Positions 20,602 to 35,693 of a stretch of DNA of 64,000 bases are shown here, piece after piece. The translations under genes and the position numbers were made by a program. The DNA is from Patescibacteria group bacterium (lineage in GTDB: Bacteria > Patescibacteriota > Minisyncoccia > UBA6257 > GWB1-50-10). Where the stretch lies: positions 235,010 through 299,009 of the forward strand of contig JANBVK010000001.1 of assembly GCA_024239035.1 (NCBI GenBank), written 5' to 3'. The notes beneath the pieces were generated by a model. That model searched no databases. It saw nothing but the letters and a program-made list of their open reading frames with translations, and was not told the origin of the DNA. Position 1 is the stretch's first letter. Each line of letters starts with the position of its first letter.

Positions 20602-20653
20602 CTCCCCCTACAGAACGCATTCAGAACTCTGGATTGGGTTGGTATTAGGAAAG
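20602..20653 (+). repeat. Dispersed repeat family R1 (CTCCCCCTACAGAACGCATTCAGAACTCTGGATTGGGTTGGTATTAGGAAAG), copy 1
   Basis: Four copies of a near-identical sequence in this window, all in the same orientation and all intergenic. Confidence 0.85.
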
Positions 20654-21195: not shown

Positions 21196-21266
21196 TTTAA
21201 ATATACTAGCATTGCCTTCTGTAGAAAGAAAATGTTTTACCTACTCGTCTTAATCTCTTGTGCTAG

Positions 21267-21323
21267 CTCCCCCTACAGAACGCATTCAGCCTGCCCGACC
21301 AGGGAACCTTGGATTAGAATAAG
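21267..21323 (+). repeat. Repeat family R1, copy 2 (with 17-nt internal insertion), 55 nt upstream of the ABC transporter gene
   Basis: CTCCCCCTACAGAACGCATTCAG[cctgcccgaccagggaa]CCTTGGATTAGAATAAG. Confidence 0.8.
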
Positions 21324-21378
21324 ATCAGGGAAGAAATAGCAAGTCTTAGAGTATCATTTAAAGTTACTCTTAGTTATA

Positions 21379-23169: not shown

Positions 23170-23186
23170 ACTTTTATATCCTCGGT

Positions 23187-23305
23187 CAGGACTCAAACCG
23201 ATCGGCTCGAAACCTGCTTAAACGAATCAATTATCCATTGTCCTCACTTTGTCCACATATGTGGACAAAGTGAGGACACAGCAGATCTGCTTGAAAATCA
23301 AATCA
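23187..23305. repeat. Composite repeat family R2/R3, copy A: a roughly 50-nt block (CAGGACTCAAACCGATCGGCTCGAAACCTGCTTAAACGAATCAAT), a 38-bp perfect palindrome GTCCTCACTTTGTCCACATATGTGGACAAAGTGAGGAC (23240-23277), and a conserved tail ACAGCAGATCTGCTTGAAAA
   Basis: Seen directly. The palindrome core TTGTCCACA / TGTGGACAA is a 1-mismatch DnaA-box-like 9-mer in inverted orientation. Confidence 0.85.
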
Positions 23306-23341
23306 AGTTAAGAAAAGACGCACAAGAAGAGTTAAATCTAT

Positions 23342-24073
23342 TTAGTTTCTAAAAAGAAGGGTAGCGCCAATGGCTGCACCGTTTTCTTGAAGGGCAGATT
23401 TTTTTGTTTTACATTTTACCCCTCGTTTTATTAGTTCGGTTTTTAATTTAACAAAGAGGTTTTTCTTCCCCTTTTTGATAACTCCACCGCCGAATATAAT
23501 GGTATCCGGTTTGTAATATTTTATAATCGGCAGTAAGTGTTGAGCGATAAAAATTGTAAGCCTTATCTTTTTTCCGCTTCTTATTTTTTGGTATTGTTTT
23601 TCCCACTTTTCAGGATATTCAAATCTTTTTATCTTTTTCACCCTCCCATTTTTTACGAAAGCTCTTCCAATGCCTGTGCCTAACGTAATTACTAAAAGAT
23701 TTTTTGATTTTTTTCCAGCGCCCAATAAATATTCTCCTTTAGCAAAAGCCCTGGCGTCGTTATCCACTTTTAGTTTTAAGGATCGCGGAAAAATGCCCGC
23801 GAGATCCATTTTTTTAAGATAGGGAATATTAGGACTAAAAACTATAGTGTTTTTATTAATTACTCCGGCAGAGCCCACGCCTATTTTTGATACTCGATGA
23901 CCTTTCTGTAAAAATTTATTGGTAATTTCGTGAAGGATTTTTATAAACTCGCTTTTGTTTAGCGGGGTTTTCTTCTCATAAGAGGCCTTAATCCTTTTGC
24001 CATCCCATAAGATAGCTCTTATTTTTGAGCCGCCAATATCAATACCTATAATATCGCTTTTATGCGTCCTCAT
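23342..24073 (-). CDS. ROK-family sugar kinase / transcriptional-regulator-like ATPase; start probably at 24073 (MRTHKSDIIGIDIGGSKI)
   Basis: IGIDIGGSKIR is an actin-like ATPase phosphate-1 motif typical of ROK/glucokinase. The ORF track extends to 24136, but the M at 24073 gives a sensible 62-nt divergent intergenic gap. Confidence 0.7.
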   Translation of the reverse strand: MRTHKSDIIGIDIGGSKIRAILWDGKRIKASYEKKTPLNKSEFIKILHEITNKFLQKGHRVSKIGVGSAGVINKNTIVFSPNIPYLKKMDLAGIFPRSLKLKVDNDARAFAKGEYLLGAGKKSKNLLVITLGTGIGRAFVKNGRVKKIKRFEYPEKWEKQYQKIRSGKKIRLTIFIAQHLLPIIKYYKPDTIIFGGGVIKKGKKNLFVKLKTELIKRGVKCKTKKSALQENGAAIGATLLFRN

Positions 24074-24135
24074 CTTTTCTATTGTAACAAACGCAATAAT
24101 AGTATTTATCTCTATTTGCCACTGGGCGTGATACA

Positions 24136-25365
24136 ATGGAACATGTTAATATTCATGAAACTGTGAAAAAGCTCCTGGACGATAACATAAAAGACGCTGT
24201 TTTGAAACTCATGCTTAAAAATAGACGGCAGGCCGGGGAATATCAGTACACGCTCCCATCCACCGAGACGTACCCCTATCAGTGGCTATGGGATTCCTGT
24301 TTTCATGCCATTATTTTAAACCATTTCAGCGCGGACGATGCTCAAAAAGAGATTTTGTCATTTCTTTCTAAACAATTCGACAACGGCCTTATTCCTCATA
24401 TGATCTATTGGGAAAAAGCGGATGTTTTTAATATTAATTGGGGCACTGAAGGGACCAGCAGCATCACCCAGCCTCCGATGGTTGCCTATGCGGTGTGGCG
24501 AATCTTTCAAAAAAATGGAGATGAAAAGTTCCTAAGGAAGGTGTATCCGAATCTTTTTCATTTTTACAAATATTTAATCAATGAAAGAGATCCACATGAA
24601 CAAAATCTCGTTGGCATCATAACTCCAGACGAATCTGGTGAAGATAATTCACCTCGCTTTGACGAACCCCTTGGTCTTCCCCCCATCCATTCCAGAAAAA
24701 CGAACTTCAAAAGAAGGCTCAAATTAATCGATGAAAATAGGAAATGCAATTTTGATGCACCGTTCTGTATGAAAAACTTCTTCTGGGTAAAGGACGTTCC
24801 CTTTAATGCGATTATGGTGGAAAACTTAAAATGCCTCGCTCACATTGCTGAGCGACTCGGTCATGACTATGATGCCGAATACTTTGGCAAACAGCGGCAA
24901 GAAATCATTGACGCGATGCGTGAACTTATGTTCGAAGATGGCATATTCTGGACAACCTATGGCGAAGATTACAAAAAAATTAAAGTAAAAACATGGGCGC
25001 TCTTTGCGCCACTCTTTGCAAAAATCCCCACACAAGAAGAGGCTGAACTACTGGTGAATACGTATCTTCTCAATAAGGAAGAATTTTGGACAGAGTATCC
25101 CCTCCCCACTGTTTCTCTCGGAGAACCGTCATTTAATGCTGAAGGATATTGGCGTGGTCCCACATGGTTTGCTCCAAATTGGTTCATCTATAAGGGGCTT
25201 ATCCAGTATGGCTTCATGGATATAGCTTCCAAACTTAAAAATAGTTCTCTCAAACTTCTTAAGAAATCAGGTTTCCGTGAACAATTCAATCCCCAAACAG
25301 GAAAAGGTCTTGGGGCAAAAGAATTCACCTGGGGCGGACTGATCATTGATATGAATGACACATAA
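24136..25365 (+). CDS. Six-hairpin glycoside hydrolase (GH63 / GH37 trehalase-like)
   Basis: YPYQWLWDSCFH resembles trehalase signature 1 (Y-x-W-D-x-Y). YWRGPTWFAPNW resembles signature 2 (Q-W-D-x-P-x-G-W-A-P). Confidence 0.55.
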   Translation: MEHVNIHETVKKLLDDNIKDAVLKLMLKNRRQAGEYQYTLPSTETYPYQWLWDSCFHAIILNHFSADDAQKEILSFLSKQFDNGLIPHMIYWEKADVFNINWGTEGTSSITQPPMVAYAVWRIFQKNGDEKFLRKVYPNLFHFYKYLINERDPHEQNLVGIITPDESGEDNSPRFDEPLGLPPIHSRKTNFKRRLKLIDENRKCNFDAPFCMKNFFWVKDVPFNAIMVENLKCLAHIAERLGHDYDAEYFGKQRQEIIDAMRELMFEDGIFWTTYGEDYKKIKVKTWALFAPLFAKIPTQEEAELLVNTYLLNKEEFWTEYPLPTVSLGEPSFNAEGYWRGPTWFAPNWFIYKGLIQYGFMDIASKLKNSSLKLLKKSGFREQFNPQTGKGLGAKEFTWGGLIIDMNDT

Positions 25366-25426
25366 TCTTTCGATGAATTGAAAAAAATGAAAGCCCGTGC
25401 CCACACCAGACCTTGGCTCCCCCTAC

Positions 25427-25468
25427 AGAACGCGTTCAGAACTCTGGATTGGGCTGTTATTAGGAAAG
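25427..25468 (+). repeat. Repeat family R1, copy 3
   Basis: CTCCCCCTACAGAACGCGTTCAGAACTCTGGATTGGGCTGTTATTAGGAAAG. Confidence 0.85.
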
Positions 25469-25564
25469 AATTGGCAGCGTCGCCTGCTTTTGTATAGAAA
25501 AAGACCGCCCGAAGGAGGTCTTCCTTTGAGCGGTTTGTTGTTTTCATGGGATAGAGCGTAGACG

Positions 25565-26122
25565 TCAATTTGCCTTTAGCGATTTCCCATACGCTGCGAT
25601 TACGATGATGAAACTGAAGGCTTGTTGGAGTGCCAGAAGTGGATATTCCTGCATCCACATCAGAGTTCCTGCAGACCCGTTCATTAGTAGATACCAAGGC
25701 CACCCCGTTGGATTCTTTCTAGCAAGAAGATATGTCCCGACGAGAAATCCAATCGCAACACCAAGCTCCAACGCCTGAGTGAGCGTCACAAGTCCACCAA
25801 AGACGTACAAGCTAACACCAATTCCAACGAACGTCATTACTATTGCGAAAGTATTGAGCCACTCTGGTTCCTTACCACTACCACGAAGGGCAATAATTAG
25901 CCCGAGAACCATTGATGGCGCACCTCCGCCCTCGACAAAGATGAGAATCAAATCACTTTCAATGAAAAAGATTACCATCCACATTGGAAGACCGATAAGA
26001 TATGCTATCCATCCAGAGATTCTCCAGCGACGCCCACAAACTGACTCATCTCCCTCTGCAATGAGGAGGAAGACTTTTTGCAGAAGATAGCCGAGACCAG
26101 CAAATGCTTCGACGACTCCCAT
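25565..26122 (-). CDS. Small polytopic membrane protein, possibly a PnuC-like transporter
   Basis: 185 aa, Trp-rich TM helices (NPTGWPWYLLMNGSAGTLMWMQ) reminiscent of the PnuC family; weak. Confidence 0.35.
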   Translation of the reverse strand: MGVVEAFAGLGYLLQKVFLLIAEGDESVCGRRWRISGWIAYLIGLPMWMVIFFIESDLILIFVEGGGAPSMVLGLIIALRGSGKEPEWLNTFAIVMTFVGIGVSLYVFGGLVTLTQALELGVAIGFLVGTYLLARKNPTGWPWYLLMNGSAGTLMWMQEYPLLALQQAFSFIIVIAAYGKSLKAN

Positions 26123-26199
26123 TGCAACCTCCTCTCAAGTGTTCTGTTAAAATATCTAGTAGAGATTATATCAGATATTTAGAATACGTCAAGTAATAG

Positions 26200-26250
26200 C
26201 TCCCCCTACAGGACGCGTTCAGAACTCTTGATTGGATTGGGATTAGGAGA
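26200..26250 (+). repeat. Repeat family R1, copy 4
   Basis: CTCCCCCTACAGGACGCGTTCAGAACTCTTGATTGGATTGGGATTAGGAGAG. Confidence 0.85.
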
Positions 26251-26335
26251 GATTTAGAAACTATAGTTGGTTTTATAAAAATGGAAAAGGCGGGTGCAGT
26301 TTGTCACTGACCCGCCCTCTCTGCTGTATTCGCTA

Positions 26336-26815
26336 TTAGAAAATGAACCTAATAGACCGTTCCTCAATGATGCGTATCTGGATGGTCTCTATGGGCTCAT
26401 TAAGCCGAAGCGCTTTACCTACGACGGCTCGCATGAAACAGTGGCCCTCCGAGCTTCCGGTGATCTCCATAGTAGATTCGAGCCACCCGTCGAGTCCTTC
26501 ACGTTCGCCCCTGCGAAGTAGCGGTCGTAATGTCTGCAGCAGCTCCCCACCAGTTTCCTCGCGCCTCTTTGATTCCTCATTGATACACAGAAGGCACGCG
26601 GACAAGCCATCTTCGAAGCCGATGTGAGGCCTCTGGTGTTTCTCGCAGTAGAGACCTGACTTGATCGCACAAGGGACACAGCTAGTGAGCTTATCGTTCC
26701 CGCGTGCTTTAGGGAGAAGCACGATTACTTCAGGATCTTTACCGCAGATCTCGCATCCCGCTAGTGTCTCAGACATATAGGTTAATCCTTTTCCGATAGT
26801 TGGTAAAATATTCAA
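26336..26815 (-). CDS. Cys-rich hypothetical protein (zinc-ribbon-like CxxC pairs)
   Basis: CEICGK...CVPCAI...CEKH...CLLC spacing suggests two zinc knuckles; 159 aa. Confidence 0.45.
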   Translation of the reverse strand: MNILPTIGKGLTYMSETLAGCEICGKDPEVIVLLPKARGNDKLTSCVPCAIKSGLYCEKHQRPHIGFEDGLSACLLCINEESKRREETGGELLQTLRPLLRRGEREGLDGWLESTMEITGSSEGHCFMRAVVGKALRLNEPIETIQIRIIEERSIRFIF

Positions 26816-26872
26816 AGAGCAAAAACAAGATACTACACTACATGGTAGTCCGTCAATACCTAGCTCCGCGAG

Positions 26873-27320
26873 CAGGACTCAAACCGATCGGCCTGAAACC
26901 TACTTAAACAAATCAATCACTGCTGATTCTAACTGTCCTCACTTTGTCCACATACGTGGATAAAGTGAGGACACGGTAGATCTGCCTGAAAACCGAAAAA
27001 TTAATTTAAAACTGTAACCGGGTGGCCGGTAAAGAGCGGAGTATTTACGACGTCGCCCAAATTGCACGGCTCGCCCACGTAGAGAGCAAATTCCACTTCC
27101 CTGCCCAATAAATCACTAGACACTGCAGTGCCGCTCAAAGAAGAAAAGTGCGTTTCGTACTGCCAGCTGCTTATTTTTTCTTAGCGAGGAACAAGCTTAG
27201 AAAAACAAGTATCCCGAGCGAGTCTCAAACGAATGTGAGAGACGACGAGGGACTACCAAATATTGATTCGGAAAGAAACTAACGAAAAATGAGCCAGTCG
27301 ATTGGCTTATTTTTCGGATT
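26873..27320. repeat. Composite repeat family R2/R3, copy B: the 50-nt block, a palindrome at 26935-26972 (GTCCTCACTTTGTCCACATACGTGGATAAAGTGAGGAC), a CCGGTAAAGAGCGGAGTATTTAC block, a roughly 225-nt insert, and a terminator-like block AACGAAAAATGAGCCAGTCGATTGGCTTATTTTTCGGATT (27279-27320)
   Basis: Shares the 50-nt block and tail with copy A, and shares the CCGGTAAA.AGCGGAG block and the terminator block with copy C. Confidence 0.85.
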
Positions 27321-27598
27321 AAATAATACACAACAATTTCGAATCCCAGCCCGGCAGCCAGTTAGTGGGAGGTTCAAGTGACCTGATTGGTTCACAAATC
27401 TCACTAATTTCTATTATTCATAAATTTGTTAAAATAAGACTACGAATACAGTTGAGAAAAAAGTATGGTCAGAATATTTTCAACAAATTCTTGATGTTAA
27501 AAGGACTTTTGAACTTAGACTGAACAATTTTGAAATTAATGAAGGCGGTAAAGCCGCAACGTGTTAAAGAGGTGGAAGATGACTCAACCTAATTCGTT

Positions 27599-29320
27599 AT
27601 GCCTAATGATAAACAAGAAACAACTAGCGAAATTAAACTAATCGGCACGATGCCGACTTATAGGGACTTATTTCCTGAACAAGGAGCTGTTGGAGAAAAA
27701 TTTGTAATAAGGATTTTACAAAACCTCTATCAGAGAGATTGTTTATTGATTTTGTATCAACTTTCTAAACATTATTACAAATATTGCCAGAAAGGTTGCG
27801 GAGGGAAAAATAGTCTAGATATTTACAAACAGAGATGTTTTGAACTGGTAAGTTCAGAAATACAGGAAAAAATAAAAAAGAAAAACCCAATGCCACCTAG
27901 GGACTATATGATCATTTTTCCTGAGCCATCAATAGTCCATTTAGTTAAGCTTTGTTTGCGATATTGCGACAACGCAGACTACACAAAAAATGGCGTAGAG
28001 TTCTCACAAGAAACTCTACACAATATCGGCAAGAGTTTACTTGTAGTTAATTCTATCTTCGCAGATTGGCAGTTAAAAAATACCAGCGAAAAAACTCGAA
28101 TGACCCTTGATTTATTGGCTAATCTTACAAAACAGCAAATTGTAGATAAAAACTTTGAGATGTCTCAGAAGATGTATCAGAACTACTTTATCTTTAAAAA
28201 ACTATTAAATAACTACAATGCCAAGTTTGATCTTCAAAGTCTTTTTCAGGAAAAGTTTGGTGTCGAGGTGCAGGAGTATTTCGCTTTCCTAGCGGTGCTT
28301 CAGGGGCAATACGATATTAAAGATATACTAGATGAAGATTGGGCGTTGCCATTCTTAGACTTCGACATTGCGTTAAAGAATTTAAAATCAAAATATAAAC
28401 ATAAACTTTTAGATAGCCTCCTAATTAATAATATGAACTATAAAAATCTTAGCATGAGCTTTTTTGATGTGACCGATGTCATAAAAAGGCCACTTGTGAA
28501 GTTACCAGATAATAAAATAATACCCCTGAGTTTACGTCGACTTTTTAACCGGCTCTCAACCTCTGTTTATTTTGATTTACTAGACTCTCTAACCAATAAA
28601 AAAGAAAAAGATAAATTTTCTCAGTATTTTGGATATGCTGTGGAAGACTATTTTCGAGATTTAATTCGTTCTATAGATAGTAGCGTCTTGTTTCCGCGCT
28701 ACGGTAAAGCCGATGAACAAGAAGCAAATGATGCAGTTTTGGTTCAAAAGGATGCAGTTATATTTTTTGAATGCAAAAAACGCCCATTTCATAACCTCGA
28801 ATTTCTTCAAAAGGGCAACGGCGACTATTACCTGGATAGACTTAGAGAGTCTTACTTCAAACCACTAGATCAGATTTGTGAAAGAATTAAAGATTTTAGA
28901 GATGGTAAGTTCTCTGTCGAAGGTGTTGGGAACGATGCACTTGTATATCCGGTGGTTGTATCTCCTGCAACTCCACCACTTTTTTCTGGAGCTTGGGACA
29001 AGTTTAATTTGAATCAATATGTTTTGCCTAAATATTACAATGAGGATAAGAGCATAGCCCCACCAGAGTTTATTGATTTTTCAGAGTTAGAACATATAGA
29101 GGAAGTCCTTAAAAGACAGCAAGATATTGATATTGTCGACCTGATAAAAAGGAAACGGGCTGATACAACGTATCACAGCGCTAATTTTTTGGTGTTTCTC
29201 CATAAAAACCATATGGTCTTTCACAATAAGAGATTATTGGAAAAGTATTTGAGCGAAGTTAAAAGCTTCAAAGAACTTCTTTTTAAAGATAGTGAGAAAA
29301 GGTCGATAGGTGGAAAGTGA
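27599..29320 (+). CDS. Orphan hypothetical protein (573 aa), very AT-rich, bracketed by composite repeats; possible defence or abortive-infection-type protein
   Basis: Long ORF with Lys/Asn/Tyr-rich composition, clearly different from its neighbours. A candidate PD-(D/E)xK-like motif (VQKDAVIFFECKK) is a weak indication only. Confidence 0.6.
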   Translation: MPNDKQETTSEIKLIGTMPTYRDLFPEQGAVGEKFVIRILQNLYQRDCLLILYQLSKHYYKYCQKGCGGKNSLDIYKQRCFELVSSEIQEKIKKKNPMPPRDYMIIFPEPSIVHLVKLCLRYCDNADYTKNGVEFSQETLHNIGKSLLVVNSIFADWQLKNTSEKTRMTLDLLANLTKQQIVDKNFEMSQKMYQNYFIFKKLLNNYNAKFDLQSLFQEKFGVEVQEYFAFLAVLQGQYDIKDILDEDWALPFLDFDIALKNLKSKYKHKLLDSLLINNMNYKNLSMSFFDVTDVIKRPLVKLPDNKIIPLSLRRLFNRLSTSVYFDLLDSLTNKKEKDKFSQYFGYAVEDYFRDLIRSIDSSVLFPRYGKADEQEANDAVLVQKDAVIFFECKKRPFHNLEFLQKGNGDYYLDRLRESYFKPLDQICERIKDFRDGKFSVEGVGNDALVYPVVVSPATPPLFSGAWDKFNLNQYVLPKYYNEDKSIAPPEFIDFSELEHIEEVLKRQQDIDIVDLIKRKRADTTYHSANFLVFLHKNHMVFHNKRLLEKYLSEVKSFKELLFKDSEKRSIGGK

Positions 29321-29451
29321 TAAGGGGGTGTGTCTCATTTGTCTCATTTACCATATAACACCCCTGACCCGAGTGGGTTGATTCTCGTGCTATAATAGCT
29401 TCAAAGAACCCCCTAAACACCCCCATTAAAACAAATCACCTTTATTTTCAT

Positions 29452-29628
29452 GTCCTCAATATGTCCACGTATGTGGATAAATTGAGGACAAATGAAATCC
29501 GCTCTGATAATCAATGTCTCCTACTCAACAAATTATCAATTGGAAACGGTAACTGGGTAGCCGGTAAAAAGCGGAGAATTTACTGCAAACGAAAAATGAG
29601 CCAGTCAATTGGCTCATTTTTCGGATTG
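29452..29628. repeat. Composite repeat family R2/R3, copy C: palindrome GTCCTCAATATGTCCACGTATGTGGATAAATTGAGGAC (29452-29489), a CCGGTAAAAAGCGGAGAATTTAC block, and a terminator-like AACGAAAAATGAGCCAGTCAATTGGCTCATTTTTCGGATT (29586-29625)
   Basis: Direct comparison with copy B; the terminator hairpin TGAGCCagtcaattGGCTCA has an A-run and a T-run on either side, so it could terminate in both directions. Confidence 0.85.
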
Positions 29629-29964
29629 TGGTTTTATACGATAAACCACTCCTCTACCAATTTTGCCCACTTGTTCCACGCCACCTTCTTTTTCGAGCTC
29701 CTCCATATAGCGGGCAACAGACCTGCGAGAGATACCTAAAACCTCACGAATATCGGAATTGGTAAGTTCTGGCCGCTCTTTAAGGAGTTCAAGGATTCTC
29801 ACTTTGTTCTTATTCTTCCTAACAGTTCTGTCTAGTGCGATATTACAAATTCCCGCAAACTCTTTCGCGGTGGTTGTGTCATGCTTTTTTGCCTCACTAC
29901 AAGACAACCAGAACAGGATAAACAAAAGGGCAACAAAGAGAAAAAGAAAGATTAATAAATTCAT
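29614..29964 (-). CDS. Membrane-anchored winged-helix (HTH) transcriptional regulator
   Basis: N-terminal TM (LLIFLFLFVALLFILFWL), then a C-terminal HTH (LTNSDIREVLGISRRSVARYMEELEKEG). Confidence 0.6.
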   Translation of the reverse strand: MNLLIFLFLFVALLFILFWLSCSEAKKHDTTTAKEFAGICNIALDRTVRKNKNKVRILELLKERPELTNSDIREVLGISRRSVARYMEELEKEGGVEQVGKIGRGVVYRIKPQSEK

Positions 29965-30014
29965 GCTTTAAATTTATACCTGCTTTAGCTATCGTGTCAG
30001 ATCCTGCCGAGGTT

Positions 30015-30512
30015 TTAAATTTTCTTAAAAAGTTCGGTATCCATTATTCTCCACCACATCATTTCCTCGCTTACTTTGTATCTCTGAGCCAGTGATTTCA
30101 CATCTTTAATTCCTTCTGCAAAATCTCTTTTCAAAAAATCAATTGGCACTAAAAGCTCTGCCGCAAATTTGTTTACGGCTGTTTCTTCGGGATTCTTAGA
30201 ATTGAAATCATCACCATTATTTCGCAAATCGGCATGTCCCAATATCAGATGCCCTAATTCGTGTGCAATTGTAAATCGTTGACGATGTGGGTGATGATCT
30301 CGATTGTATGCAATTACATGTTTTTTGTTTTTGCTAATATGCGCGCCGGAAACCTTATTGATAAAAGAATGCGACACGAGTTCAATTATAATCTTTCGCT
30401 TCCTGCTAATATGTTGAATAACTTCTTTAATACCAATAGGAGGGTTATTTATTTGTAGTTCACTGATAATTCGACGCGCTAATTTTTGTGGGAATTGTAT
30501 TTTACTTTTCAT
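30015..30512 (-). CDS. ImmA/IrrE-family (COG2856, DUF955) zinc metallopeptidase
   Basis: HEXXH motif in context: FTIAHELGHLILGH. 165 aa; the start overlaps the methyltransferase stop by 4 nt. Confidence 0.75.
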   Translation of the reverse strand: MKSKIQFPQKLARRIISELQINNPPIGIKEVIQHISRKRKIIIELVSHSFINKVSGAHISKNKKHVIAYNRDHHPHRQRFTIAHELGHLILGHADLRNNGDDFNSKNPEETAVNKFAAELLVPIDFLKRDFAEGIKDVKSLAQRYKVSEEMMWWRIMDTELFKKI

Positions 30513-31864
30513 AATTTCTTTTTAAGTATATCGATTGAATATTGAAGTTTTCGCTCTTCTTCTACTGTCAACCCCTGTTCAGACCTAAAAGCGACCTTAA
30601 CTACTGGATCATTTCTTTTAACAACGGTTCCTCCGTAACTTAATGGGAACCTTCTATCTATCAATTTTGGCTCAATCGCTTGATTGAGCACTTGTTTTAT
30701 TTCAAAAACATTTGCACGAGAACTTTTCTTTGTCGAATCAATTATAATAACAAACTCCGTATTGTGTCCTCTATCCTCTACGTTGACCCCAGAATATCTT
30801 TGTGAACTTACTCTATATCGTTTATATTTCTTAAGCACTATGTCGAGGTATCCTTTATCAGCAAACATATCTAACAGCGTATTGAAATTTACCAAACCAT
30901 CCGTGGAGTAACTTATTAAAATAAATCTGGCTTTTAATTTACTGATTAATTCTCTAAATGCTTCTGTGGCCGTATCTCGATAGCAATAGAAGCTCTTTCT
31001 CTCGGTTCGCCAATCCAATCTGATAGCCGATTTGTTGACCGTTTTGCCATTGACCAAAATCTCTTTGTTAATTTTTGGTTTATCCCAGAGGTCAATAGTG
31101 CTCAAAAGATGGTAATTTGAACCATATTGATGTTGATTATATGGAGGGTCTATATAAGCAATATCGCACTTAATATTAGAAGCCAACTCATTTGCGTCCT
31201 CTTTATATACGTTATTTTCTTTACCGTTATTGTGAAAAAGTGGCGGCTCAATCGTTAATCGACTTCTGATTCTATAGAGAGCAGTGCTCGTTGATCCACC
31301 CCACCCCCGATGATAGGCCTTGAAAACACCTGAGGTATTACTGCAGTAAGCTCCTTGAAAAATTAGTGGCGCTAACAAAACTCGCATCTCACTTTCATTG
31401 ATAGTTCCATCCTCTCTCCACTCTCGTATCTTTTCTCTGATCGCATCAATTCGTCGACCGTTCTCTTGCGTATAGAACATACGTTCTTTATCAGGGTTAG
31501 GATTTTCATCATTTGCTGGGCAATAGTACGTAGCAATATAGCCTTTGATTGGTTTGAGATTATTCAAAATACCAAACGCCTTCTGCATTCCGCCTAATTT
31601 TCTAAATGTTGGCGGGCGGTTTCGTTTAATATAGGTATGGTTGATCGTATAAGAATACGGCTCCCAATCATTACTAATGACTTGGTAGCCAAAAACTTTG
31701 GCTAATCTTGATATCACACCGCTACCTGCGAATACATCAAAAAACACGCCGGAGTTCACGCCAGTTTTGCGAACCGCTTGTTCAATAAGAGGCACTAACC
31801 GCCTTTTGTTCCCTATATAGGGTATGAGCTGATTATATGTAAAACTATCTTGATTGCGCGGCAT
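30509..31864 (-). CDS. N6-adenine DNA methyltransferase (Dam-like D12 class) of a type II restriction-modification system
   Basis: IPYIGNKRRL (Dam KWAGGK-equivalent region), FAGSGVIS (FxGxG SAM-binding motif) and catalytic DPPY. Confidence 0.8.
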   Translation of the reverse strand: MPRNQDSFTYNQLIPYIGNKRRLVPLIEQAVRKTGVNSGVFFDVFAGSGVISRLAKVFGYQVISNDWEPYSYTINHTYIKRNRPPTFRKLGGMQKAFGILNNLKPIKGYIATYYCPANDENPNPDKERMFYTQENGRRIDAIREKIREWREDGTINESEMRVLLAPLIFQGAYCSNTSGVFKAYHRGWGGSTSTALYRIRSRLTIEPPLFHNNGKENNVYKEDANELASNIKCDIAYIDPPYNQHQYGSNYHLLSTIDLWDKPKINKEILVNGKTVNKSAIRLDWRTERKSFYCYRDTATEAFRELISKLKARFILISYSTDGLVNFNTLLDMFADKGYLDIVLKKYKRYRVSSQRYSGVNVEDRGHNTEFVIIIDSTKKSSRANVFEIKQVLNQAIEPKLIDRRFPLSYGGTVVKRNDPVVKVAFRSEQGLTVEEERKLQYSIDILKKKL

Positions 31865-31865
31865 A

Positions 31866-33383
31866 TTATCTTTGAGTTTGGGTATCCCTTATGAGGTTAT
31901 GCCAAAGTTTCTCTACATTAATGATCGGAATTTTGATCTTTTTCTTAGTAGTATAGATGTCATTCGGATAATTGCTGATCCATGCAGCTACAAATCTTGA
32001 TCGGGTAATATCGTCTTTCGGAGACTCGTGCGCACTAAACTCGAATGCATCATATTCTGCCTCAATTTCAAATAGTCGACCTTTATAACTATCAACATTT
32101 TGAATGATATCATGACGGATCGAAAATAAGTCCATTAAATCCAAAGATTTAAGTGATTTATTAAACCTTTCAGCAGGAACGAGGTCATCTAAATAAATAC
32201 AAAGGAGATCTGGATAGGCCGTATCCACCCGCACCACGAGAATTATCTTTTCTTCTTTGTCTTGTTTAACCTTAAGAGCTTTAGCTAAGCTTAGATTTTC
32301 TATATAGGAAATAACATTTACTTCTTGGTTTGCCTCTTTATACTTTTTAATAAGTTTAATTTTGTCCTCGAACGTACTTGTAATTTGGGCATGTAGCTGT
32401 TCTCTATATTTTTTGAGACGAGCGTTTTGAAATGGCGCGGTGTATGGAGCTTTACTAATGTCCTCAATTTTATTTAACTTGTGATATTCCGCGAGCGGGA
32501 GTATTGGTTGGCCTGTTTTGAAATATAACCATTCCTCACCGTTTTTAGGCTTAATAAAAAAGTAAAAGATATTAGCGGCGTCAGGTTCTAATTTTTTAAA
32601 CACTAAATTATCGAGGACTCGAAACGGGATAGTGTAAAAATCTTTATATTCCAAATCATCTGTTAATATTTTGAAAACAAAATTCGGGCAGTTTTGATGG
32701 TAGATAAAACTTTTTGGTATCGAGTAATAAATCCTCGGATGAGATTTAAGTATCTCCTCATAAGGTATCGTCGGATACGGAATATAAATATGTTCGCGCT
32801 TGTTGGTTTCAAAACAAGCCTTCCGTTGCTCAAAAAAATATTGAGACACTTTCCTGCCGCTGTTTGATATCTCTTGGATCACTGCACGCTTCGGCCACTT
32901 TTTATCATAATCTCGCAATTTAAATTCTTGAGTTTTGCGATCCAAGAAAACCTGTAACGCTTTCTCTACTTCTTGTTTGAATGCTTCAAACTTTTTATTG
33001 CTGACTTTCGTGATGTTTGTAAATTGAGGTTCAACATCACCGTCCGATCGAACCCTAAAAAGCAGGATACCATCTTTTATTGGTCTAAATAAAATCTCAG
33101 GTAACCTGTAGTAGTAATCATCAGAACCTCTAACAAGACCTATCGCATTGAGAACCATTGAAATGTTGCCGGGGAGCCCCCGTAAAAATGAGCGAATCTT
33201 TTTTTCTGGTACTGACCTACCAATACCCATCATCATTCCGATATAAGCAGGGTTGTCGCGAAAAAACTTTAGAATGTCATTAGTTGAAAATCGATTTGCT
33301 TTCAGCTTGCCATGTTGGACAAAAATGAGAAACTTTAATGGGACGCGGTCTTTTTTAATAACCATGGTTTGGGGATTATCCAC
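31866..33383 (-). CDS. Putative cognate restriction endonuclease (505 aa hypothetical), 1 nt upstream of the methyltransferase gene
   Basis: Position and tight coupling to the methyltransferase; no conserved motif expected or seen. Confidence 0.45.
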   Translation of the reverse strand: MDNPQTMVIKKDRVPLKFLIFVQHGKLKANRFSTNDILKFFRDNPAYIGMMMGIGRSVPEKKIRSFLRGLPGNISMVLNAIGLVRGSDDYYYRLPEILFRPIKDGILLFRVRSDGDVEPQFTNITKVSNKKFEAFKQEVEKALQVFLDRKTQEFKLRDYDKKWPKRAVIQEISNSGRKVSQYFFEQRKACFETNKREHIYIPYPTIPYEEILKSHPRIYYSIPKSFIYHQNCPNFVFKILTDDLEYKDFYTIPFRVLDNLVFKKLEPDAANIFYFFIKPKNGEEWLYFKTGQPILPLAEYHKLNKIEDISKAPYTAPFQNARLKKYREQLHAQITSTFEDKIKLIKKYKEANQEVNVISYIENLSLAKALKVKQDKEEKIILVVRVDTAYPDLLCIYLDDLVPAERFNKSLKSLDLMDLFSIRHDIIQNVDSYKGRLFEIEAEYDAFEFSAHESPKDDITRSRFVAAWISNYPNDIYTTKKKIKIPIINVEKLWHNLIRDTQTQR

Positions 33384-33444
33384 GCTTTATTCCATTATAT
33401 ACTATCGTTCTGATTTTAAGTAGTTAATAGTATATAAATCAAAA

Positions 33445-33708
33445 TCAGAGATCTGGCCTATCCTGCCAATCGTCATAAAGCGGCACAGCAACATAAATCG
33501 CAATTAAAAAAATAAACGCCAAAAAGGCGATGAAGACAACCCAAAACCATCTCTTTTCTCCCGGAGAGACTTTTTTTTCCGAGTTTTTAGAATTAAAAAA
33601 ATTAGGGCCGGAGGTCCCACGTTGCTCATCCATAGCCGAGTTTTTTGACCCGAATCGGAGGTATTCTTTCTTTAATTTAAGTCTTATAAAGCTTCTACTT
33701 ACTGTCAA
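33445..33708 (-). CDS. Small protein with C-terminal TM anchor
   Basis: 87 aa; C-terminal WFWVVFIAFLAFIFLIAIYVAV helix. Confidence 0.4.
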   Translation of the reverse strand: MTVSRSFIRLKLKKEYLRFGSKNSAMDEQRGTSGPNFFNSKNSEKKVSPGEKRWFWVVFIAFLAFIFLIAIYVAVPLYDDWQDRPDL

Positions 33709-33797
33709 CCCCGTACAATTACACCGCTCGCGCTATCCGAGCGCAAAAGACACGAAGTGGCGGTGTAATTATACGGGATCAAGACAAATCTTCCATC

Positions 33798-33892
33798 GTC
33801 TTCACTTTGTCCACATATGTGGATAAACTGAAGACATGTTCCGTAAATTGAGTTGTCCTCACTTTATCCACATATGTGGGGCTTTTGAAGAC
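33798..33892. repeat. Two tandem palindromes of family R3 (33798-33835 GTCTTCACTTTGTCCACATATGTGGATAAACTGAAGAC; 33855-33892 GTCCTCACTTTATCCACATATGTGGGGCTTTTGAAGAC) in the divergent promoter region of the PaaX-like regulator gene
   Basis: Each contains perfect TTATCCACA / TGTGGATAA DnaA-box 9-mers. Confidence 0.85.
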
Positions 33893-33924
33893 AGATAATA
33901 TTGTTATAATTCGGTAACACAAAA

Positions 33925-34440
33925 ATGGCTAAAACTTCTCGCGACACGTGGAAACATATAAGGGAGTGGAGCGGCTTCTTCAAAGACGAAAAAGCCGTTA
34001 CCGAAGCATCGGTGGACAAATTCCTGACGCATCACAAAAAAAGAAAACACTTGAAACAAAGTTTGGACCGCCTTATCAAACGCGGATTTATAAAAGAGCG
34101 AGGCGGCAAACTCACTCCAACAGATAACGGCATCCGCTTTTTCCGAAAGCATACCGGCGCGCGGCAAAACCCAAAGCGGTGGGACGGCAAATGGCGCTTA
34201 ATATCTTTTGACGTGCCGGGTGGCTACAGCATAAAACGCGACCAGCTGCGAGCGCTCCTTAAAGAGTTTAATTTCTATCCCCTGCAGAAAAGTGTGTGGG
34301 TGTGCCCAAGTTATGTCGCAGATGAGTTTTGGAAACTGGTGACCGGATATGATCTCGATAAATATTGCAAAGTAATGCTCGTAGATATTGTAGAAGGAGA
34401 CAAAGAATTAAAAAATCATTTCAGGCGATTTATTAGTTAA
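33925..34440 (+). CDS. PaaX-family-like transcriptional regulator (winged-helix plus PaaX C-terminal-like domain)
   Basis: WDGKWRLISFDVPGGYSIKRDQLRALLKEFNFYPLQKSVWVCP matches the PaaX_C pattern (W.G.W.L..FD.P......R..LR..L...GF..LQ.SVW). Confidence 0.6.
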   Translation: MAKTSRDTWKHIREWSGFFKDEKAVTEASVDKFLTHHKKRKHLKQSLDRLIKRGFIKERGGKLTPTDNGIRFFRKHTGARQNPKRWDGKWRLISFDVPGGYSIKRDQLRALLKEFNFYPLQKSVWVCPSYVADEFWKLVTGYDLDKYCKVMLVDIVEGDKELKNHFRRFIS

Positions 34441-35693
34441 CGTTTCTTTCTCTTTCTTAAAAACGCCGGGATGTCCCACTCTGATTTATGAGAGTCTTTT
34501 TTCTTTGCGCTTTTCTTACCTCTCGTATCCTCCTCTCTTTCTTCCGCCTCCTTCACACTTCCTTCGTCTTTTATCTCCGTCACGCCTTCTTCCTTTAGTT
34601 CATCTTTTAGGAAAAGAGACGGCATACCCAAACGATTGCTGCTCATCAAGCCGTTGAACCCGGTGGCAACCACCGTTACTTTAATGCTCTTGTCTTTGAG
34701 ACTGCGGTCATAGTAAGCGCCGAAAATTACCTTAGCATTGGCGTCCAGGTTGGCTGAGATGGTTTTAGCTACCTCGTTTATTTCCGCCATTTTCAAGTCT
34801 CTCCCGCCGGCGACGCTAAAGAGTACCCGTTTTGCACCATCAGTGGAAATCTCAAGAAGAGGGGAATTAATTGCGGCTTTCGTCGCCTTCAGGCTCCGGT
34901 CGGCGCCCGAGGCAATACCGATGCCAATCAGCGTCGGTCCAGAATCTTTGATAATTGCCTTAATATCAGAAAAATCAACGTTTATAATGCCTGGTGCGTT
35001 TATAAGGTCAGCAACAGCACTAACCGCCTGCTGGAGAACCTCATCAACAAAACTGAAGGCGCGGGCGACAGAAGTGTCTTTGCTAATCAAACCAAAAATC
35101 CGGTCATTGGGAATTACAACCAGGGCATCAACTTTATCCTTCAAATTACTAAGTCCTTCTTGGGCAATCCTCGATCGATCCATTCCTTCGAATGAAAACG
35201 GCTTGGTAACGATGGCAACTGTCAAAATATTTTTTTCTTTTGCCGTCTCGGCAATAACAGGGAGAGCTCCAGTGCCGGTGCCGCCGCCAAAACCAGCGGT
35301 GAGAAAAACAATATCCGTCCCTTCCAACGCTTCTATAATTTCCGAACGGTTTTCTTCAGCCGCTTGCTTGCCGACATCCGGATTCATGCCGGCACCAAGT
35401 CCACGAGTAAGAGCTTTACCAATGTAAATTTTACGGTGAGCCAGCGTATGATTTAGGTCCTGAGTGTCTGTGTTTATAGCAAGGAATTGAACGCCTCGCA
35501 TCCGGTTCCCTTCCATCATTCTGGTTACGGCATTGCCGCCGCCGCCGCCAACTCCGACAACCTTAATAGACGTAACACCCGATTTTGCTTTACTCGGAGA
35601 TCTCAACTTTAATACCCTCCTTGCCTTTCTTGCTGGCCTTGATCTGGGTCTGGATCTTTTTAGTTTGGGTCTTCTTCTTATTCTTCTTGCCAT
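34437..35693 (-). CDS. ftsZ: Cell division GTPase FtsZ, with Arg-rich N-terminal extension if the ATG at 35693 is used
   Basis: IKVVGVGGGGGNAV tubulin signature, GTP-binding NTDAQ-equivalent, C-terminal conserved peptide DIPAFLRKRKK. Confidence 0.9.
   Translation of the reverse strand: MARRIRRRPKLKRSRPRSRPARKARRVLKLRSPSKAKSGVTSIKVVGVGGGGGNAVTRMMEGNRMRGVQFLAINTDTQDLNHTLAHRKIYIGKALTRGLGAGMNPDVGKQAAEENRSEIIEALEGTDIVFLTAGFGGGTGTGALPVIAETAKEKNILTVAIVTKPFSFEGMDRSRIAQEGLSNLKDKVDALVVIPNDRIFGLISKDTSVARAFSFVDEVLQQAVSAVADLINAPGIINVDFSDIKAIIKDSGPTLIGIGIASGADRSLKATKAAINSPLLEISTDGAKRVLFSVAGGRDLKMAEINEVAKTISANLDANAKVIFGAYYDRSLKDKSIKVTVVATGFNGLMSSNRLGMPSLFLKDELKEEGVTEIKDEGSVKEAEEREEDTRGKKSAKKKDSHKSEWDIPAFLRKRKKR

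Follow-up and report, generated by a model that had tools for sequence, protein, structure and literature searches.

A winged-helix and Cas2-like protein gene of Patescibacteria and its recurrent, putatively cognate palindromes

The pairing of a gene for a winged-helix (wHTH) plus Cas2-like protein with palindromes recurs across the ultra-small Patescibacteria (CPR), which have tiny genomes and for which we know of almost no characterised regulation. The window analysed here, a stretch of 64,000 nucleotides from a CPR genome, contains one such gene and five copies of a 38-bp palindrome, all of the copies inside 10.6 kb. The gene is linked to the palindromes, their sequences co-vary with that of the protein, and a copy stands beside the predicted promoter of the gene. 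Judging from sequence features, the palindromes are probably cognate double-stranded DNA sites of the encoded 171-aa protein, a short CPR-specific relative of PaaX. No description of a CPR-wide gene-plus-palindrome pairing was found in the literature searched.

The five palindromes listed by the initial annotation are all present at the positions given in Table 1, as seen by pattern search, outer-heptamer search and repeat finder. The pattern search, with at most 3 mismatches, finds copies 1, 2 and 4 in the window against a chance expectation of 0 (none of 100 shuffled sequences contained any match); copies 3 and 5 were added by a repeat finder and direct reading. A search of the 64 kb for the outer heptamers (GTCCTCA, 22-26 nt, TGAGGAC, at most 1 mismatch in each) returns exactly the five copies, versus a shuffle mean of 0.5. 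Copy 1 is indeed the perfect palindrome that it had been called, and folds as single-stranded DNA with -20.6 kcal/mol (z -8.4), while copies 2-4 have 2-3 mismatches each. The description fits two members in part: copy 3 is present but is imperfect in its arms, and copy 5 keeps the left arm, the centre and an outer TGAAGAC, but with GGGGCTTT as its inner right arm it is a palindrome by half only.

Table 1. Positions in the window of the palindromes, the repeats around them and the associated gene features
Feature	Position	Strand	Description
Composite repeat around copy 1	23179-23311		79% identity over 145 nt to 26865-27009 around copy 2
Palindrome copy 1	23240-23277		Perfect 38-bp palindrome, 0 mismatches, extendable to 40 bp (23239-23278); between convergent ABC-transporter (+) and ROK-kinase (-) genes
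Composite repeat around copy 2	26865-27048		Left part matches the copy 1 unit
Palindrome copy 2	26935-26972		2 mismatches, one in the centre and one G.T
Palindrome copy 3	29452-29489		3 arm mismatches; between convergent 573-aa gene (+) and wHTH/IrrE/MTase operon (-)
ORF-X	33445-33633	-	Small ORF for a 62-aa N-terminally anchored membrane protein, ~160 nt from copy 4, which lies upstream
Palindrome copy 4	33798-33835		Distal site of the tandem pair with copy 5
Copy 5	33855-33892		Promoter-proximal, half-degenerate
Predicted extended -10 element, TGTTATAAT	33902-33910	+	From sequence inspection; putative transcription start
171-aa winged-helix + Cas2-like (Pfam PaaX_M) protein gene	33925-34440	+	Proposed palindrome binder

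Copies 1-3 are embedded in larger composite repeats, as had been noted. Shared flanks of 133-145 bp join copy 1 to copy 2 and copy 2 to copy 3, the right part of the copy 2 repeat (26934-27048) being 70% identical to the sequence adjoining copy 3 (29451-29583). These common flanks point to a locally duplicated unit that extended beyond the palindrome itself; thus, copies 1-3 evidently spread by segmental duplication and not as 38-bp units.

The 171-aa protein matches Pfam PF20803 (PaaX_M, E 1.6e-18, 67 bits versus a cutoff of 24), and its AF2 model (pLDDT 84) has helices at residues 27-35 and 40-52 followed by a wing at residues 56-65. The top Foldseek hits of this model are PaaX (8a39) and Rv0674 (3kfw), then Cas2 proteins, with MarR-type wHTH proteins also aligned; by sequence, the protein is similar to 8a39 (E 1.2e-3) and to Pfam Cas2 (E 1.3e-3). 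The alignment stops at about residue 133 of 3kfw (247 aa) and about residue 162 of 8a39 (316 aa), the chain ends at residue 171, and Pfam finds no PaaX_C effector domain in the protein. It scores 25 bits as an NCBIfam PaaX equivalog (TIGR02277), far under the cutoff of 264.55, and the neighbours of its gene (ftsZ, a defence operon and sugar genes) include no paa catabolic genes. The label "PaaX regulon" is to be used with caution: the protein lacks the C-terminal effector domain of PaaX and has no paa genes nearby. When the Cas2 catalytic motifs are aligned by reading, the protein retains the QxSVW motif as well as an invariant beta1 Asp (D96) and an invariant S123, features that true PaaX proteins lack. 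This retention of the Asp and QxSVW motifs counts against the operator reading, being a hint of activity beyond binding.

The gene ends in a stop codon that overlaps the stop codon of convergent ftsZ (34437-35693, minus strand). At its other end, copies 4 and 5 stand in tandem upstream, in agreement with the initial annotation, and end short of the predicted extended -10 element, which starts 10 nt past copy 5 and finishes 14 nt before the ATG; the design GTCCTCA-N24-TGAGGAC is thereby placed directly upstream of the -10. No Shine-Dalgarno sequence is seen, so the leader is apparently very short or absent. TGnTATAAT-like elements occupy the equivalent place in several relatives (loci L099, L016, L096, L006, L015 and L014), and across the close subfamily 4-9 nt separate the end of the upstream site from TGnTATAAT, itself 6-14 nt from the ATG.

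The palindrome is not peculiar to the window. An unbiased genome scan with it returned only Saccharibacteria/Patescibacteria MAGs; the four MAGs matched have 1-7 strict copies each, and in three of them a pair of copies flanks a homologue of the 171-aa gene. A protein-first search found palindromes of the same design both upstream and downstream in L013, L014, L015, L016-18 and L096-101. Long zero-loop palindromes are concentrated around the gene at 83 homologue loci collected independently of the palindrome: their density is 2.45/kb up to 150 bp from a gene end but 0.057/kb in the remaining sequence (65 near gene ends against 1.5 expected, P about 1e-80), and 18 of 80 loci have an identical palindrome on both sides of the gene. 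The second site follows just after the gene in relatives, often abutting the promoter of the next gene. Among 139 homologues of the protein, those that have a source name are all from CPR; the family comprises over 4000 clusters at 50% identity, and two homologues are seen within single loci. Palindrome families track protein subfamilies defined by the recognition-helix region (KYLKQSLxRL with CCTCA..., HSKEQIRNSINHL with TGATAAATTCTGCAT, and KDQRNFNRSVRRLS with ATCATAATTCCACGG). At finer scale, copy 3 is the window copy nearest to the site downstream of the gene in the close relative L099 (91% over 55 nt, flanks included), and the degenerate design of copy 5 recurs at the equivalent position in L099 and L013. 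The flanking pattern, the co-variation and the promoter-proximal site abutting the extended -10 support the suggestion of the initial annotation that the palindromes are operator sites of a local PaaX-like regulator.

As such a regulator, the 171-aa protein may bind as a two-fold symmetric dimer. Its Cas2-like domain would form the dimer and be placed over the dyad (the centre is CATATG here and C-N4-G family-wide), and the two winged helices would contact the outer heptamers GTCCTCA/TGAGGAC, about 31 bp apart. The tandem copies 4 and 5 would cover the -35 region, just upstream of the extended -10 of a nearly leaderless mRNA, so that their occupancy would repress transcription; the arrangement of upstream site and extended -10 is consistent with negative autoregulation. 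Copies 1-3 might extend control by this protein to a small number of further intergenic regions, as operators or as transcription roadblocks. A candidate regulated target is ORF-X, whose place beside the downstream palindrome is conserved in L099, again in the order site then ORF-X; similarity to ORF-X in L009 and L006 is weak.

The initial annotation was correct that the cores match the bacterial DnaA box, TTATCCACA, with 0-1 mismatch in every copy. If the sites (TTGTCCACA/TTATCCACA cores) were bound by DnaA, as regulated promoters or a titrating cluster and possibly in competition with the PaaX-like protein, they would couple replication status to a regulator that adjoins ftsA-ftsZ in several lineages, though only in some; the DnaA-like core is the commonest core of the close subfamily, with perfect TTATCCACA pairs in L003 and L007/L013. 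Such a role is highly improbable. The core is the variable part, equivalent sites carrying TTAACCACG, AAATCACAT, CGATGCAT, TTATCCCAT and CTACGCAT, the conserved outer heptamers belong to no DnaA box, and the box preference of the host organisms may differ from the TTATCCACA matched here. Relatives keep the outer GTCCTCA/TGAGGAC and the centre but have another sequence in place of the DnaA-box-like core (L014, L015, L016, L017, L018, L096a and L096c); with the core exchanged in this way, DnaA titration or regulation is not supported as a conserved function. What looks like a DnaA box belongs to the variable inner core of a single sub-lineage and is not the conserved feature. An origin of replication had been considered unlikely in the absence of dnaA nearby, and this view stands: tblastn of the window with an approximate B. 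subtilis DnaA query gave no match under E 0.86, and the window has no clear GC-skew switch, its cumulative skew falling almost continuously.

Arm-to-arm symmetry persists at positions that vary between sites, even around one gene: the three flanking sites of L096 have the cores CAATGCAT, ACCCACAT and CTACGCAT, with a DnaA-like core in one only. Double changes are found in 13 of 17 pairs and pairing reaches 96.9%, the stem base being conserved and the mid-stem variable, and the three spacer positions that the genome scan did not constrain are symmetric in 14 of 14 matches. This symmetry at variable positions, which a simple operator model does not require, counts against the operator reading. 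The spacing of the outer CTCA-TGAG tetramers ranges from 22 to 26 bp between sites (24 to 26 bp in the single genome L011). Window copies 1 and 3 and the solo copies of L004 and L007 stand in gaps between convergent genes, a setting in which a promoter would not be anticipated; the neighbours of solo copies share no common function (the housekeeping genes thyA, atpB, yebC, malic enzyme and comEC), and solo copies are distributed like random intergenic sites, convergent gaps included. Their position at 3' ends, the lack of a functional theme and the variable tetramer spacing also count against the operator reading.

The strong covariation of the arms would be expected of a structured-DNA element, REP/RAYT-like or attC-like, in which the wHTH tethers an active Cas2-like nuclease that cuts or nicks extruded hairpins or cruciforms, with the invariant D96 and S123, lost in PaaX, as possible catalytic residues. 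A gene inside its own palindromes with extragenic solo copies, placed like random intergenic sites, resembles the design of REP/RAYT. Dispersing elements, or hot-spots of recombination or insertion, would also explain the palindrome-punctuated variable 15-kb region before the conserved SpoU-DUF192-GAPDH block: the distance from the gene to SpoU is about 15.6 kb in the window and about 1.3 kb in L096/L098, copies 1-4 divide up the additional DNA, which includes the low-GC defence operon, and the gene with its proximal site is inverted relative to ftsZ by comparison with L099/L100. Nevertheless, an element of this kind is unlikely. The centre, where a loop would be, proves symmetric in its own right in 40 of 54 cases if the central 4-6 nt are left out of arm detection (chance 1/16 to 1/64), which argues against a hairpin, whose loop would carry no such constraint. 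Promoter-proximal sites are conserved despite loss of pairing, keeping the outer heptamer and the centre (window copy 5, L099, L013 and L026), and the strains L096, L097 and L098 are collinear across the sites. The segmental duplication of copies 1-3, the low copy number in the matched MAGs, the lack of target-site duplications and the lack of a recombinase or transposase fold are further points against it, and we know of no case in which Cas2 alone integrates DNA.

The more specific proposition that the gene and its flanking perfect palindromes are an undescribed, CPR-wide, self-contained module, with the Cas2-like domain acting enzymatically on extruded palindromes, is quite doubtful. If true, it would make the palindromes recombination or insertion hot-spots, accounting for the homogenisation of the two arms as well as for the variable island at 23-34 kb, and the system would be a functional counterpart of REP/RAYT or attC/IntI based on an unrelated protein. 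The symmetry at variable positions and the kept Cas2 motifs are compatible with an enzymatic or recombination role, which would amount to a new kind of palindrome-protein system. The suggestion that the palindromes are termini of a small mobile element is not supported, given the few target-site duplications, the low copy number in the matched MAGs and the finding of a homologue in a single one of 2.9 million viral contigs. Direct repeats of 3 nt or more abut only 2 of 47 copies, which speaks against a MITE or other non-autonomous transposon. Where a REP-type dispersed repeat would have tens to hundreds of copies per genome, the counts are five copies in the 64-kb window and 1-7 strict copies in each of the four MAGs matched.

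Sites are commonly located 19-50 nt past a stop codon as well as between convergent genes, and the hairpins would be stable (z -8 to -9). They might act once transcribed, as hairpins that stabilise the transcript or terminate it (bidirectionally), or as substrates for a Cas2/GhoS-like endoribonuclease activity of the protein in post-transcriptional autoregulation; function in both transcripts would need perfect Watson-Crick symmetry, and the Cas2-like domain weakly resembles the GhoS/YjdK RNase (E 0.27, not significant). This is very unlikely, however, because the stems are without a following U-tract, several having T-tracts 5' and A-tracts 3' in the reversed order, because G.T and A.C mismatches have no strand bias (24 versus 16, P 0.27), and because a hairpin leaves the symmetric centre unexplained and the upstream site precedes the predicted promoter. 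An intrinsic terminator scan called none of the five copies (their centres are symmetric and they have no 3' T-runs), and no Rfam family matches the palindromes, which gave only sub-threshold hairpin-like matches.

There is scarcely any likelihood that these are parS-, NBS- or SBS-like sites for chromosome organisation or cell division, bound by a protein encoded beside ftsZ. Few copies per genome, their clustering near the binder's gene, positions independent of promoters and the conserved ftsA-ftsZ linkage would suit such sites, but that linkage is confined to some lineages, the protein has no similarity to the ParB, Noc, SlmA or MatP folds, and more than 4000 clusters at 50% identity, at times with two homologues per locus, are like a transcription-factor family.

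With the palindromes read as operators, each family member comes with a predicted, easily synthesised cognate site of 30-50 bp, and the subfamily of the window is repeatedly linked to ftsA-ftsZ. Inverted "DnaA boxes" in CPR genomes can mislead predictions of oriC or of DnaA regulons.

Compared with known systems, the DnaA-box clusters of oriC, datA and B. subtilis likewise have several 9-mers with 0-1 mismatch to TTATCCACA within about 10 kb, but the boxes of the window are always contained within a larger conserved palindrome, are not kept at equivalent sites in relatives, and are accompanied by no dnaA, AT-rich unwinding element or skew switch within the window. Like REP/RAYT (TnpA_REP), the CPR system has a single-copy gene flanked by its own palindromic elements, extra copies in extragenic spaces that include convergent gaps, and lineage-specific palindrome families that co-vary with the protein and between their arms. 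Unlike REP/RAYT, the flanked gene in the window encodes a wHTH and Cas2-like protein instead of an HUH/Y1 transposase, the copies per genome are few in the four MAGs matched versus tens to hundreds for REP, the palindromes are perfect, zero-loop and symmetric in the centre with no conserved GTAG-type 5' tetranucleotide, and the upstream site has a clear promoter relationship. Symmetric sites with conserved outer motifs and variable inner sequence, lying between gene blocks by the gene of the candidate binder with two sites beside that gene, recall integron attC/IntI; however, there is no tyrosine recombinase (no integrase is found among the ORFs from 21 to 37 kb), the perfect palindromes have none of the extrahelical bases by which the attC strand is chosen, and the "cassettes" of the window hold several genes in mixed orientation that have promoters of their own, with no strain-level cassette polymorphism seen. 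CRISPR-associated Cas2, several structures of which are among the Foldseek hits, has in common with the protein the ferredoxin-like fold, the Asp at the end of beta1 and the SV[WF] motif, but here the domain is fused to a winged helix and the repeats are dispersed over kilobases; the window has no CRISPR array or tandem repeats, and no cas1 or other cas genes turned up among the nearby ORFs scanned with PADLOC, Pfam and NCBIfam.

E. coli PaaX recognises the operator TGATTC-N27-GAATCA and represses its own promoter by steric hindrance (PMC9493321). Relative to this protein of about 305-316 aa, the 171-aa window protein lacks the phenylacetyl-CoA effector domain, has no paa genes beside it, scores far under the PaaX cutoff of NCBIfam and keeps the Cas2 Asp/Ser motifs; its site is palindromic over the whole 38 bp, not in two short half-sites, and a second identical site follows the CPR gene. 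The two proteins are alike in the N-terminal winged helix and Cas2-like middle domain (8a39 being the top Foldseek hit), in inverted half-sites about 2.5 helical turns apart within a total site of 38-39 bp, and in a site over their own promoter, which suggests steric autorepression. The wide spacing of half-sites in PaaX operators appears to go back to the wHTH plus Cas2-like scaffold itself, as an old trait with no tie to aromatic catabolism.

All five 38-bp palindromes listed in the initial annotation were recovered at the positions it gave, and the feature is real. Its consensus, at up to 3 mismatches, matches the window at 23240, 26935 and 33798 and has no match in 100 shuffles; the copies at 29452 and 33855 were added by a repeat finder and direct reading, and the outer heptamers alone (GTCCTCA and TGAGGAC, at 22-26 bp spacing) identify exactly these five palindromes in 64 kb. 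Copy 1 is a perfect palindrome, copies 2-4 contain 2-3 mismatches each, and copy 5 retains only the left arm, the centre and an outer TGAAGAC. Flanking sequence of 133-145 bp is common to copies 1 and 2 and to copies 2 and 3; therefore, within the window the palindrome has multiplied as part of a longer, locally duplicated unit.

Features of the palindrome-bearing region (window coordinates)
Feature	Position	Strand	Remarks
Palindrome copy 1	23240-23277
Palindrome copy 2	26935-26972
Palindrome copy 3	29452-29489
Palindrome copy 4	33798-33835
Palindrome copy 5	33855-33892
PaaX-like gene	33925-34440	+	171 aa
TGnTATAAT-like element	33902-33910		predicted
ORF-X	33445-33633	-	small membrane protein, 62 aa
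Inverted repeat	33711-33729 / 33761-33779		CCGTACAATTACACCGC...GCGGTGTAATTATACGG
Defence-like operon	29614-33383	-	low GC (0.37)
wHTH protein	in operon	-	Csa3/CapH-like
M78/IrrE peptidase	in operon	-	IrrE/CapP-like; PADLOC capP, 1.5e-27
D12 N6-adenine methyltransferase	in operon	-	Type II MTase, 1.5e-103
505-aa protein	in operon	-	no assigned function
573-aa ORF	27599-29320	+	between copies 2 and 3
Second repeat family	20599-20653, 21264-21330, 25414-25468, 26197-26251
40-nt hairpin repeat	27281-27320, 29588-29627

A scan of 185,579 species genomes for the core pattern, with any base allowed at three spacer positions per arm, found 14 sites in only four MAGs, all Saccharibacteria/Patescibacteria, and in three of the four MAGs two sites flank a homologue of the PaaX-like gene. 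A protein-first search identified homologues in Jorgensenbacteria and other CPR lineages that are flanked likewise by palindromes of different sequence (such as GCCTCAATTTTAACCACGTGGTTAAAATTGAGGC, three copies at locus L014, and TCCTCAAAAAATCACATATGTGATTTTTTGAGGA, two copies at L015), and a metagenome scan with the family alignment added 80 further homologue loci. In a set of 83 homologue loci collected without reference to the palindrome, the density of strong zero-loop palindromes is approximately 43 times higher in the 150 bp next to either gene end than elsewhere (65 sites against 1.5 expected), although the comparison region is mostly coding and the true intergenic enrichment is therefore smaller, if still large. 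The same palindrome is present on both sides of the gene at 18 of 80 loci. Co-variation of palindrome and gene among relatives, which the initial annotation had proposed to check, is evident: each protein subfamily, as delimited by the recognition-helix region, has its own palindrome family. The protein family comprises 4173 clusters at 50% identity (E <=1e-10) and is essentially absent from the viral contig collection (one homologue only), on which ground a phage origin was rejected. Some CPR contigs (L096, L043, L050) encode two PaaX_M-type genes within a few kb, and cross-regulation between them is possible; the surroundings of the second L096 gene (6063-6662, - strand) showed no palindrome with arms of 13 nt or longer.

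Sites of the close subfamily have three constant parts, namely the outer heptamer (G/T)(T/C)CCTCA, a spacer rich in A/T and a CATATG centre, with 5-6 variable inner nucleotides; across the wider family, most centres follow the pattern C-N4-G (CGATCG, CGGCCG, CATATG or CCATGG). The clearest example of a variable core is found in L096-98, where three sites around one gene have the cores CAATGCAT, ACCCACAT and CTACGCAT. The DnaA-box likeness is confined to this variable core, being common in a Saccharibacteria-like sub-lineage and replaced elsewhere. Thus, the suggested connection with DnaA is not supported, and an oriC or DnaA cluster was rejected: no dnaA-like ORF was found in the window, the skew does not switch there, and relatives do not conserve the core.

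The arms of the palindrome are strikingly symmetric: all 14 sites from the genome scan are symmetric at the spacer positions left free, sites around one gene differ from each other by symmetric double changes, and a count over 27 distinct A3 sites, biased because these were collected by palindromy, gives 96.9% pairing with double changes in 13 of 17 pairs. The unbiased covariation evidence consists of the free N3 positions and a test of the centre. Such symmetry favours arm-arm pairing. Against a functional hairpin, it runs through the centre as well (symmetric in 40 of 54 cases in which arms were detected without the central 4-6 nt), and the promoter-proximal sites of the window, of its close relative L099 and of L013 have lost the inner pairing yet keep the outer heptamer and the centre at fixed spacing. 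The hairpin is further disfavoured by the lack of a U-tract and of a G.U bias. RNA-level candidates were also rejected: a sense-RNA structure, since G.T and A.C mismatches (24 versus 16) are not significantly asymmetric; intrinsic terminators, since U-tracts are absent and a terminator scan calls none of the palindromes; and known RNA families, for which Rfam gathering and E-value scans yield only sub-threshold hairpin look-alikes. These comparisons lead to the conclusion that the palindrome would be recognised in its double-stranded form by a protein with two-fold symmetry. Such recognition does not account for the symmetry at variable positions, for which template-switch correction of quasi-palindromes, occasional cruciform formation and an activity of the Cas2-like domain are candidate causes.

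The product of the PaaX-like gene has a Pfam PaaX_M (Cas2-like) domain, and its AlphaFold model (mean pLDDT 84) consists of a winged helix and, after it, a ferredoxin-like domain, with E. coli PaaX, Rv0674 and a Jannaschia PaaX-like protein as top structural matches, followed by Cas2 proteins. It is without the PaaX C-terminal domain and scores far under the NCBIfam PaaX cutoff. The database entry identical to it comes from a Patescibacteria contig of 729 kb. The family keeps D96 and S123 without exception, whereas other residues take their place in true PaaX structures. Residues 92-102 (LISFDVPGGYS) resemble E. coli YjdK weakly and without significance (E 0.27); YjdK is the antitoxin GhoS, an endoribonuclease of Cas2 fold. 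Gene and ftsZ converge and their stop codons overlap, such that read-through would be antisense to ftsZ; ftsA lies beyond ftsZ. In L099 (82% nucleotide identity to the window over ftsA-ftsZ), L100 and L101, the order is ftsA-ftsZ-site-gene-site, all co-directional; relative to ftsZ, the gene and proximal site of the window (33852-34440) are inverted versus L099 (2211-2785), L100 and L101.

Members of the close subfamily lack a Shine-Dalgarno sequence; between their upstream site and the ATG lies a TGnTATAAT-like element, 4-9 nt past the end of the site and 6-14 nt short of the ATG. From the position of this element in the window, the site would span roughly -20 to -57, across the -35 region. 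At L009 the downstream site abuts the TTGACA -35 of the next gene, and in the window and L099 a site precedes ORF-X. Between copy 4 and ORF-X the window has a separate inverted repeat, which the equivalent spacer of L099 lacks. Gene-palindrome linkage, subfamily co-variation and promoter adjacency all support the initial suggestion of operators for a local PaaX-like regulator; the palindromes are probably the cognate operators of a short regulator from the PaaX family, which would be a PaaX-type autorepressor with wide-spaced inverted half-sites.

Copies 1 and 3 each lie between convergent genes, as do some solo sites (not beside the gene) of other MAGs. Neighbours of solo sites share no functional theme (unrelated housekeeping genes thyA, rsmI/comEC, atpB, yebC and malic enzyme), large proteins next to palindromes have no homology between loci, and no clear orthologous intergenic positions of solo copies were found across MAGs. 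Decayed gene copies beside the solo palindromes were ruled out by a six-frame HMM search of the window, which found one gene only. The alternative of a mobile element (MITE) was rejected, as there is no transposition signature in the form of target-site duplications. The backbone YqeY-YbeY-ftsA-ftsZ-gene ... SpoU-DUF192-GAPDH is conserved, with about 1.3 kb between the gene and SpoU in L096/98 versus about 15.6 kb in the window, where copies 1-4 and a second repeat family break up the additional sequence. The locus is compatible with being recombination-prone; no direct evidence of palindrome-mediated insertion was found, L096, L097 and L098 being collinear, and an apparent strain polymorphism at their palindromes is due to gene calling only. 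The operon that separates copies 3 and 4 was probably acquired recently as an island, because it was not seen beside ORF-X in L099.

The second repeat family (GCTCCCCCTACAGAACGCRTTCAGAACTCTGGATTGGNTTGNNATTAGGAAAG, about 55 nt, intergenic) has four copies, one with a 15-nt insert, and no Rfam match; directly next to the 26197 copy is a sigma-70-like promoter of the - strand that is close to consensus (TTGACG-16-TATAAT with TG). The 573-aa ORF has no Pfam, NCBIfam or PADLOC match. Two 40-nt hairpin repeats (95% identical, with about 95 nt of flank in common), resembling bidirectional terminators with a 5' A-tract and a 3' T-tract, are located 346 nt (copy 2) and 136 nt (copy 3) downstream of the palindromes. 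The arrangement could reflect a small transcription unit, or an sRNA, with its start at the palindrome.

The palindrome-gene-palindrome module, found across CPR, appears to be undescribed in the literature searched, in which no paper combines PaaX with Patescibacteria, Saccharibacteria, TM7, CPR or Cas2. An enzymatic or recombination role, which would be more novel than an operator, is improbable. Integrons and CRISPR modules were rejected as identities of the module. It resembles REP/RAYT systems in that the gene is flanked by its own palindromes, but does not share their protein or imperfect hairpins, and copy number is lower as far as the window (five copies) and the four MAGs of the genome scan (1-7 strict copies each) show. 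The operator bound by E. coli PaaX is TGATTC-N27-GAATCA, and steric hindrance is the means by which PaaX represses its own promoter (PMC9493321). The protein described here is not a PaaX orthologue, having no effector domain, no paa genes nearby and a score under the family cutoff, but the geometry of its putative site, GTCCTCA-N24-TGAGGAC, is the same as that of PaaX.
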